Shown one piece after another: positions 32,157 through 33,713 of a stretch of 64,000 nt of DNA. The notes below the pieces were generated by a model, which had not been told where the DNA came from, ran no database searches, and saw only the letters and a list, made by a program, of their open reading frames with translations. Every line of letters starts with the position of its first letter. Positions within the stretch are counted from its first letter, which is position 1. The position numbers were made by a program, and so were the translations under genes. Source of the stretch: Escherichia coli (GTDB lineage: Bacteria; Pseudomonadota; Gammaproteobacteria; Enterobacterales; Enterobacteriaceae); NCBI RefSeq assembly GCF_002854065.1, contig NZ_CP024147.1; one strand, given 5' to 3'.

Positions 32157-33713
32157 TCAGGCGTGTTTTTCCAGCCACACCGCAAACGGTTCGGTATCTG
32201 CGGCTTCCATTTCCTGCTGACGGCGTTCAGATGCCTCGCGCTCGGCTACAAAATCCTCTTCGCGCAGAATTTCCAGCGGCTCTTCACGCAGCAGATTACG
32301 GTACGCTTCAGCAAACGCTTTGCCTGTTCCGCCAATACCAGTATCAATCATAGACCTTAAGATACGGGCAGAGAAAGTCAGATCGGGATTATCGAAGCAG
32401 GCGACCAGTTCATCACACACTTTCTGATACGCTTCGCCGCCGTTAATGCTATCCAGCGTTTGCGCGACGCGTTTCAGATCGCGGAACAGATCTTTACCCA
32501 CCTGCGGTAACGGGAACTGTGCGGTTTCGCAGCCGATACCCAGCGTCAGACCCGGTTTGCGACCTTCGAGGATCACCCGGTTCCAGTTAACGCGTGTACA
32601 GGCAAGTTCGCTACTGCTCATTTCCGGTGCATCAGCCAGCGCACACCAGACCATAAACAGGTCGAGGAATCGCACCTGCTGTTCATCTACACCAATCGGC
32701 GAGAACGGGTTGATGTCCAGCGAACGCACTTCAATATATTCAATGCCGCCACGTAACAGCGCATCAGAAGGCGACTCGCCGCTGCGGGTAACGCGTTTTG
32801 GACGAATCGGCGCGTACAGTTCGTTTTCAATCTGCAGCACGTTGCTGTTGATTTGCAGCCTCTTACCGTCTTTCTCAATACCAATCTTCGCGTACTCTTC
32901 CGATGGCGTTTTGATTGCCTGTTTAAGGCCCGCTACGTACTCGTAAAGATCGTTGAAGGTAATACCAAGATTGCTTTGCGATTTATTGGTATAGCCGAGG
33001 TCGCTCAAACGAAGAGAGGTCGCATACGGCAGGTAATACATACCGCACTCGGTTTTCTCAAACGGCAGCGACGTTGGTTTTCCTTGCAGGAAAGAAGAAC
33101 AAATCGCCGGAGATGCACCAAACAGATAAGGAATGACCCAACCGAAACGATAGTAATTGCGGATAACGCGGAAATAGCCCGCAGAAATTTTCTCTTTGGC
33201 ATCAGCGCCCGAGATATCACCGCACTTCGCTTGCCAGAATGCCATTGGCAAAGAGAAATTGTAATGCACGCCGGAAATGGTTTGCATCAGCGCGCCGTAG
33301 CGATTTTTCAGCCCTTCACGATACAGCGTTTTAAAGCGTCCGGTGTTAGAAGTGCCGTACTGTGCCAGTTCGATGTCCTGACCTTCTGCGATGTAGCATG
33401 GCATACTTAACGGCCACATCCGCTCATCGCCCATATTGCGCGCCGTATAACGATGCAGATCGCGCATAAAGGTCAGCATATGTTCAATATCACCATCCAC
33501 TGGTGTAATGAATTCCAGCAATGCTTCCGCAAAATCGGTAGTAATCCATTTGTGCGTCAGTGCGGAACCTAATGCTTCAGGATGACCTGTTGTTGCCAGT
33601 GTGCCATCAGCATTAACACGCAAAGTTTCGCGCTCCAGCCCACGCTGTATCCCCTTTAACGCCTGAGGATGTTTTTCCAGCCAGGCCAGCGCCTGTGATA
33701 CGTCCGGGATCAA
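32157..33713 (-). CDS. gshA: Glutamate-cysteine ligase
   Basis: 518-aa [34 protein letters not shown]...; initiation codon is TTG. Confidence 0.96.

Follow-up and report, generated by a model that had tools for sequence, protein, structure and literature searches.

Conserved non-AUG initiation codons can be used for control, as exemplified by the AUU start codon of infC, which serves the autoregulation of IF3. In the case of gshA, the TTG start codon was reportedly described for the first time by Watanabe and colleagues in 1986. More recently, Sakamoto et al. (2015; PMC4405209), who refer to Watanabe et al. (1986, Nucleic Acids Res 14:4393) for the gshA sequence, named the initiation codon of this gene as an inefficient UUG. 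Using GshA-LacZ plasmid fusions which contain the 38 N-terminal gshA codons, and hence also the in-frame TTG at codon 31, it has been shown in a polyamine-auxotrophic mutant that polyamines stimulate the synthesis of the wild-type fusion protein 2.4-fold. Conversion of UUG to AUG led to a 3.0-fold increase in basal synthesis and reduced the polyamine stimulation from 2.4-fold to 1.1-fold (PMC4405209). The same group has placed gshA in the class of the polyamine modulon described by an "inefficient initiation codon, normal SD position" (PMC7177335). In all of E. coli K-12, only 81 UUG starts were annotated (PMC4909307).

The TTG start codon of gshA and its role in polyamine-dependent translation are thus already established, and their confirmation here changes nothing in this respect. 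What is added to published work is the deep conservation of this TTG codon, together with an invariant initiation block, a modest extension rather than a discovery. No earlier statement of gshA TTG conservation was found in the literature searched and, as far as this literature extends, the polyamine-modulon papers mention neither this deep conservation nor a hairpin pairing the Shine-Dalgarno (SD) sequence. In the following, the position of the start, the lack of alternatives, the SD and the conservation come from the present analysis, while the 3-fold effect of the start codon and the polyamine dependence are taken from the literature.

The gshA locus and its reading frame

The sequence analyzed, hereafter the window, is a stretch of 64,000 nucleotides of E. 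coli DNA (NZ_CP024147.1), whose relevant features are listed in Table 1. The gene at 32157..33713 is gshA. Residues 10-380 of the encoded protein match positions 2-372 of the 372-position Pfam profile PF04262 (Glu_cys_ligase) with 564.5 bits (E = 1.1e-169), for a curated cut-off of 27 bits. Over residues 1-518, the protein aligns with the E. coli chain present in PDB entries 1V4G, 1VA6, 2D32 and 2D33, which is likewise 518 residues long, starts with MIPDVSQ and differs only by Cys-to-Ser changes in the crystallized protein. More distant relatives of solved structure, i.e., the Francisella enzyme and the bifunctional GshAB enzymes, align to GshA from residue 23-24. The RefSeq/PGAP annotation contains the identical 1557-nt coding sequence (WP_000611804.1), and the 2.2 kb surrounding the start are 100% identical to sequenced E. 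coli chromosomes, e.g., that of O157:H7 strain TR01, and present as a single copy in 5424 of 5426 complete E. coli genomes.

Table 1. Features of the window considered in this study (coordinates are those of the window).
Feature	Position	Strand	Basis or remark
gshA coding sequence, glutamate-cysteine ligase, 518 aa + stop	32157..33713	-	ORF list, Pfam PF04262, PDB 1V4G, RefSeq WP_000611804.1
gshA initiation codon TTG	33711..33713	-	Sole ATG/GTG/TTG from the in-frame TAA up to codon 31; RefSeq start
Shine-Dalgarno GGGAGG	33719..33724	-	5-nt spacer TCAAT before TTG; read from sequence
In-frame TAA closing the gshA frame	33741..33743	-	10 codons 5' of TTG
First in-frame ATG of gshA, codon 79	33477..33479	-	Within the catalytic domain
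Predicted hairpin CGGGA(GGUCAAUUUGA)UCCCG	33705..33725	-	SD paired with codons 2-3; ViennaRNA
TATGCT, probable -10 box of the gshA promoter	33747..33752	-	Holds the out-of-frame ATG 33751..33749
MicA sRNA	32076..32147	+	Between gshA and luxS, opposite to both; Rfam RF00078, 83.9 bits
naRNA4	7136..7213	+	Rfam RF02564, 77.7 bits
naRNA4	7226..7303	+	Rfam RF02564, 61.9 bits
naRNA4	23342..23419	+	Rfam RF02564, 76.4 bits
tRNA cluster upstream of yqaB	35061..35824	-	Rfam: four identical-scoring tRNAs + one longer

In the RefSeq annotation, the genes follow each other on the minus strand in the order yqaB, yqaA, gshA, luxS and emrB, with a tRNA-Ser/Arg cluster upstream, and the E. coli context yqaB-yqaA-gshA-micA-luxS was confirmed for the gshA gene of the window by this annotation together with Rfam. 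Some 10 nt separate the 3' end of MicA from the stop codon of gshA at 32157. It has been reported that luxS transcripts start inside the 3' end of gshA and that their processing depends on MicA and RNase III (PMC2956633). On the other side of gshA, yqaA also has a non-ATG start, a GTG at 34214..34212 (minus strand; RefSeq coordinates agree), which overlaps the stop codon of yqaB as GTGA (34211..34214), a 4-nt overlap typical of translational coupling. In RefSeq, the tRNA cluster consists of one tRNA-Ser and four tRNA-Arg. The naRNA4 matches, two of which are in tandem, correspond to REP/BIME-type repeat elements.

As read from the sequence, the TTG codon at 33713..33711 of the minus strand is followed by ATC CCG GAC GTA TCA (M-I-P-D-V...). 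The nine codons separating the in-frame TAA from this TTG (AAC GAT TTT GAC AGG CGG GAG GTC AAT) contain no ATG, GTG or TTG, and the frame offers no further candidate until codon 31 (TTG31), followed by codons 72 (GTG72) and 79 (ATG79, at 33479). The predicted duplex with the anti-SD is -11.0 kcal/mol for the TTG of codon 1, vs -5.6, -3.3 and -6.8 kcal/mol for TTG31, GTG72 and ATG79, respectively. Hence, gshA shows the properties expected of a UUG start: a frame closed upstream, no ATG or GTG before the conserved protein and an SD at functional spacing. ATG79, being inside the catalytic domain, is not a plausible start, and gshA translation very probably begins solely at the TTG of codon 1. The original prediction, according to which gshA opens with TTG on the minus strand and has no in-frame ATG nearby, is borne out on both counts: the 518-codon frame and the RefSeq start agree with it, the first in-frame ATG is that of codon 79, and the sole close ATG (33751..33749) is out of frame.

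Conservation of the TTG codon

A sample of species was obtained with a DNA pattern for the codons of GshA residues 58-71, compared with species-dereplicated genomes, which gave at least 120 loci. In this sample, chosen by an exact peptide-motif DNA pattern, the start was assignable, i.e., the frame was closed upstream, in 113 of the at least 120 loci. Among the matches listed, TTG occupies the homologous codon in all 61 Enterobacterales-type loci (N-terminus xIPDVS), nearly all of them with a GGGAGG SD; the sampled species are phylogenetically related, so that 61 of 61 does not amount to 61 independent events. The genera represented include Escherichia, Citrobacter, Klebsiella, Enterobacter, Yersinia, Serratia, Pectobacterium, Dickeya, Erwinia and Budvicia, and the endosymbionts Sodalis, Baumannia and Wigglesworthia also belong to this TTG set. 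In the sampled Enterobacterales, GshA residues 2-30 are conserved as protein.

Outside Enterobacterales, where the start was assigned from the ORF limits and the SD score, the other Gammaproteobacteria among the matches listed (n = 52) have TTG in 28 cases, GTG in 14 and ATG in 10. These loci originate from Zhongshania, Spongiibacter, Microbulbifer, Porticoccaceae, SAR86, Pseudoalteromonas, Rheinheimera and many MAGs. For about 19 of these 52 listed loci, TTG is the only ATG, GTG or TTG codon in the open frame.

In Microbulbifer (loci L033, L064, L078, L085, L105, L113 and L117 among the matches listed), the gshA start codon is GTG in six species and TTG in L085, and is thus always non-ATG, with a good SD. 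This genus offers a natural setting in which to follow how one weak start codon is replaced by another.

Neutral variation was gauged from 52 full-length gshA genes of Enterobacterales among the matches listed, which encode proteins with 45-99% identity to that of the window. Among fourfold-degenerate sites whose first two bases are fixed, none of 53 is invariant in these genes; the major allele has a mean frequency of 0.55, with codon 3 (CCG) alone above 0.9. Within E. coli, the 61-nt initiation region of gshA is identical in 5406 of 5424 genomes, and an exact ATG or GTG version of this region was found in none of the 5424.

Since an A or a G in place of the first T would still give a start codon, the invariance of this T argues for selection keeping the codon weak. 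From these sequence comparisons, we infer that selection keeps the gshA start codon weak over very long evolutionary distances, and the fact that TTG has been retained suggests an advantage in making GshA at a low or conditional rate. The comparative data support the physiological relevance of an effect whose measurement has been limited to plasmid fusions in a polyamine auxotroph. From a practical point of view, a non-ATG start is to be expected when gshA is overexpressed for glutathione production or annotated in other genomes.

The initiation region and the sequence upstream

Conservation is not restricted to the start codon. A block extending from -13 to +26 (33687..33726 of the window, minus strand), which reads GCGGGAGGTCAAT TTG ATC CCG GAC GTA TCA CAG GCG, is nearly invariant up to about +26, synonymous positions included, in 60 Enterobacterales among the matches listed. 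In these same 60 listed loci, each position of the SD GGGAGG is conserved at 97-100%, and non-preferred codons are kept, namely, GTA at codon 5 (97% A) and TCA at codon 6 (85% A). Fourfold sites elsewhere in gshA are saturated, unlike those of the initiation block.

Part of this block is predicted by ViennaRNA to fold into a hairpin in which C(-12)GGGA is paired with UCCCG(+9), with an energy of about -7.5 kcal/mol and the first U of UUG located in the loop. In this predicted fold, the G residues of the SD are almost always paired (unpaired probability, about 0.02). Among the matches listed, the nucleotides of the stem are conserved, including the synonymous positions of ATC (97% C) and CCG (95% G), and an A/G polymorphism at -3 retains pairing with U+2. 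Wigglesworthia and Baumannia have lost the hairpin but retain TTG. The folding z-scores of the initiation region against shuffled sequences do not reach significance (-0.2 to -1.0), and the region varies too little for covariation to be seen. The SD-pairing hairpin, as modeled, may therefore be regarded as a candidate element which might further damp initiation. It does not explain the choice of TTG, because the AUG variant has the same predicted fold and energy as the UUG sequence. In addition, the hairpin accounts for only part of the conservation of the block and leaves GTA and TCA unexplained. The remainder, judging from the pattern of conservation, might serve the binding of an sRNA or a protein, or reflect selection on the structure of the 5' end of the mRNA. 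An extended helix from -19 to +18, present in one MFE fold, was rejected: no compensatory changes accompany the variation of its upstream arm in Yersinia, Serratia and Pectobacterium, and only the core CGGGA/UCCCG hairpin is retained.

Further upstream, the TATGCT motif is conserved at a variable distance from the SD in Enterobacterales among the matches listed. A consensus promoter scan gave no convincing sigma-70 site directly upstream of gshA; the conserved motif itself is, most simply, probably the -10 box of the gshA promoter. In E. coli, a 13-codon frame begins at the ATG of 33751..33749, and its TGA (33712..33710, minus strand) overlaps the gshA TTG as TTGA. This upstream ATG is not in the gshA frame in E. 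coli, but it is so in some ten further Enterobacteria among the matches listed (L002, L023, L035, L037, L065, L068, L090, L108, L115 and L120), where it lies 13-14 codons 5' of the TTG. There, its predicted SD duplex energy ranges from +1.2 to -2.2 kcal/mol, which amounts to no SD. As it is located inside a conserved TATGCT resembling a -10 box, this ATG is probably not part of the mRNA. Coupling of a uORF to gshA was thus rejected, the ATG having no SD, a frame that varies between species and a position within TATGCT. In several Enterobacteria, the in-frame upstream ATG could nonetheless mislead gene callers.

Alternative readings and comparison with known systems

Collectively, these data make it very probable that TTG is the start codon of gshA and that a strong SD combined with a weak UUG holds GshA synthesis low and polyamine-responsive. 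According to this mechanism, GGGAGG with its 5-nt spacer would recruit and position the 30S subunit, while UUG, which mismatches the anticodon of fMet-tRNA at the first position, lowers initiation about 3-fold relative to AUG. The weak codon would thereby keep GshA synthesis low and make it responsive to conditions which stabilize fMet-tRNA binding at weak codons. Polyamines (putrescine and spermidine) raise initiation at UUG, especially in stationary phase and under oxidative stress, and the SD-sequestering hairpin may damp initiation further. The original prediction had also proposed that the weak start is a likely point of translational control and that the effect of a TTG-to-ATG substitution on GshA level be determined. 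The published UUG-to-AUG exchange, with its 3.0-fold higher basal GshA-LacZ synthesis, provides this measurement and agrees with the proposal (PMC4405209).

Three other readings have to be weighed against this one. It is exceedingly improbable that the true start lies downstream, at TTG31, GTG72 or ATG79, and that the TTG at 33713 reflects an annotation convention. These three codons do exist in frame, and gshA has no entry in the start-site supplements of TRAINSPOTTER (PMC13245402), INRI-seq (PMC9825163) and TetRP (PMC4909307). However, their SD is weak or absent by comparison with codon 1, residues 2-30 are conserved as protein in Enterobacterales, and the UUG-to-AUG change at codon 1 tripled the output of the fusion protein (PMC4405209). 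Besides, initiation at codon 31, 72 or 79 would truncate the domain, because the Pfam match begins at residue 10 and the distant structural relatives align from residue 23. Alternatively, the TTG codon could be a neutral historical accident without regulatory meaning, the level of GshA being determined by transcription and through feedback inhibition of the enzyme. This reading, which we consider very unlikely, finds support in the fact that UUG is the start codon of about 2% of E. coli genes (81 annotated; PMC4909307), in the possibility that a strong SD largely compensates for the weak codon and in the origin of the polyamine effect, a polyamine-auxotrophic mutant with plasmid fusions (PMC4405209). 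It is nevertheless difficult to reconcile with a T which is invariant in the 61 listed Enterobacterales loci, even though A and G are permitted and no fourfold site of gshA is invariant. TTG likewise accounts for the majority of start codons (28/52) in the distant Gammaproteobacteria among the matches listed, exact ATG or GTG variants of the region are absent from the 5424 E. coli genomes, and substitution of the codon has a published 3-fold effect on expression (PMC4405209).

It is finally conceivable, but very unlikely, that the T is kept by an overlapping element, i.e., the SD-start hairpin, an sRNA or protein site within -13..+26 or the stop codon of the uORF, rather than by weak initiation. 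The near invariance of the whole block, including the GTA and TCA codons which the hairpin leaves unexplained, is in line with such an element, and so are the predicted stability of this hairpin (about -7.5 kcal/mol) and the overlap of TTG with the TGA of the 13-codon E. coli uORF. Yet the first U of UUG is found in the hairpin loop, and an AUG variant would fold identically with the same energy; the upstream ATG has no SD, occurs in differing frames across species and probably lies outside the mRNA. Moreover, TTG persists in Wigglesworthia and Baumannia, which have no hairpin, and in distant lineages with unrelated flanks.

Going back to a TTG codon selected as a weak start, a broader proposal can be made tentatively, and we regard it as somewhat less probable than not. 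TTG would be ancient and selected across Gammaproteobacteria, being present, among the matches listed, in all 61 Enterobacterales loci and in most of the Cellvibrionales, SAR86 and Alteromonadales-type loci sampled. Together with the hairpin and the -13..+26 block of Enterobacterales, it would form a translational throttle by which glutathione synthesis is tied to the status of polyamines or ribosomes, perhaps with a putative trans-acting partner on the block.

With respect to known systems, the gene of the window is a known case: it does not differ from the E. coli gshA (gsh I) of UniProt and RefSeq, with the same gene, the same TTG start codon and the same 518-aa product. The polyamine modulon class 2 of Igarashi and Kashiwagi (cya, cra, spoT, uvrY, frr and gshA) is defined by a UUG or GUG start with a normally placed SD, and the gshA gene of the window, which likewise combines UUG with a normally spaced SD, shows no difference in kind. 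Unlike the AUU codon of infC, UUG is one of the three canonical bacterial start codons and is not subject to IF3 discrimination of the AUU kind, and we know of no autoregulatory loop, established or suggested, for gshA. Like this AUU codon, the TTG of gshA appears to be a sub-optimal start codon retained by selection, whose output would be coupled to the state of the initiation machinery.
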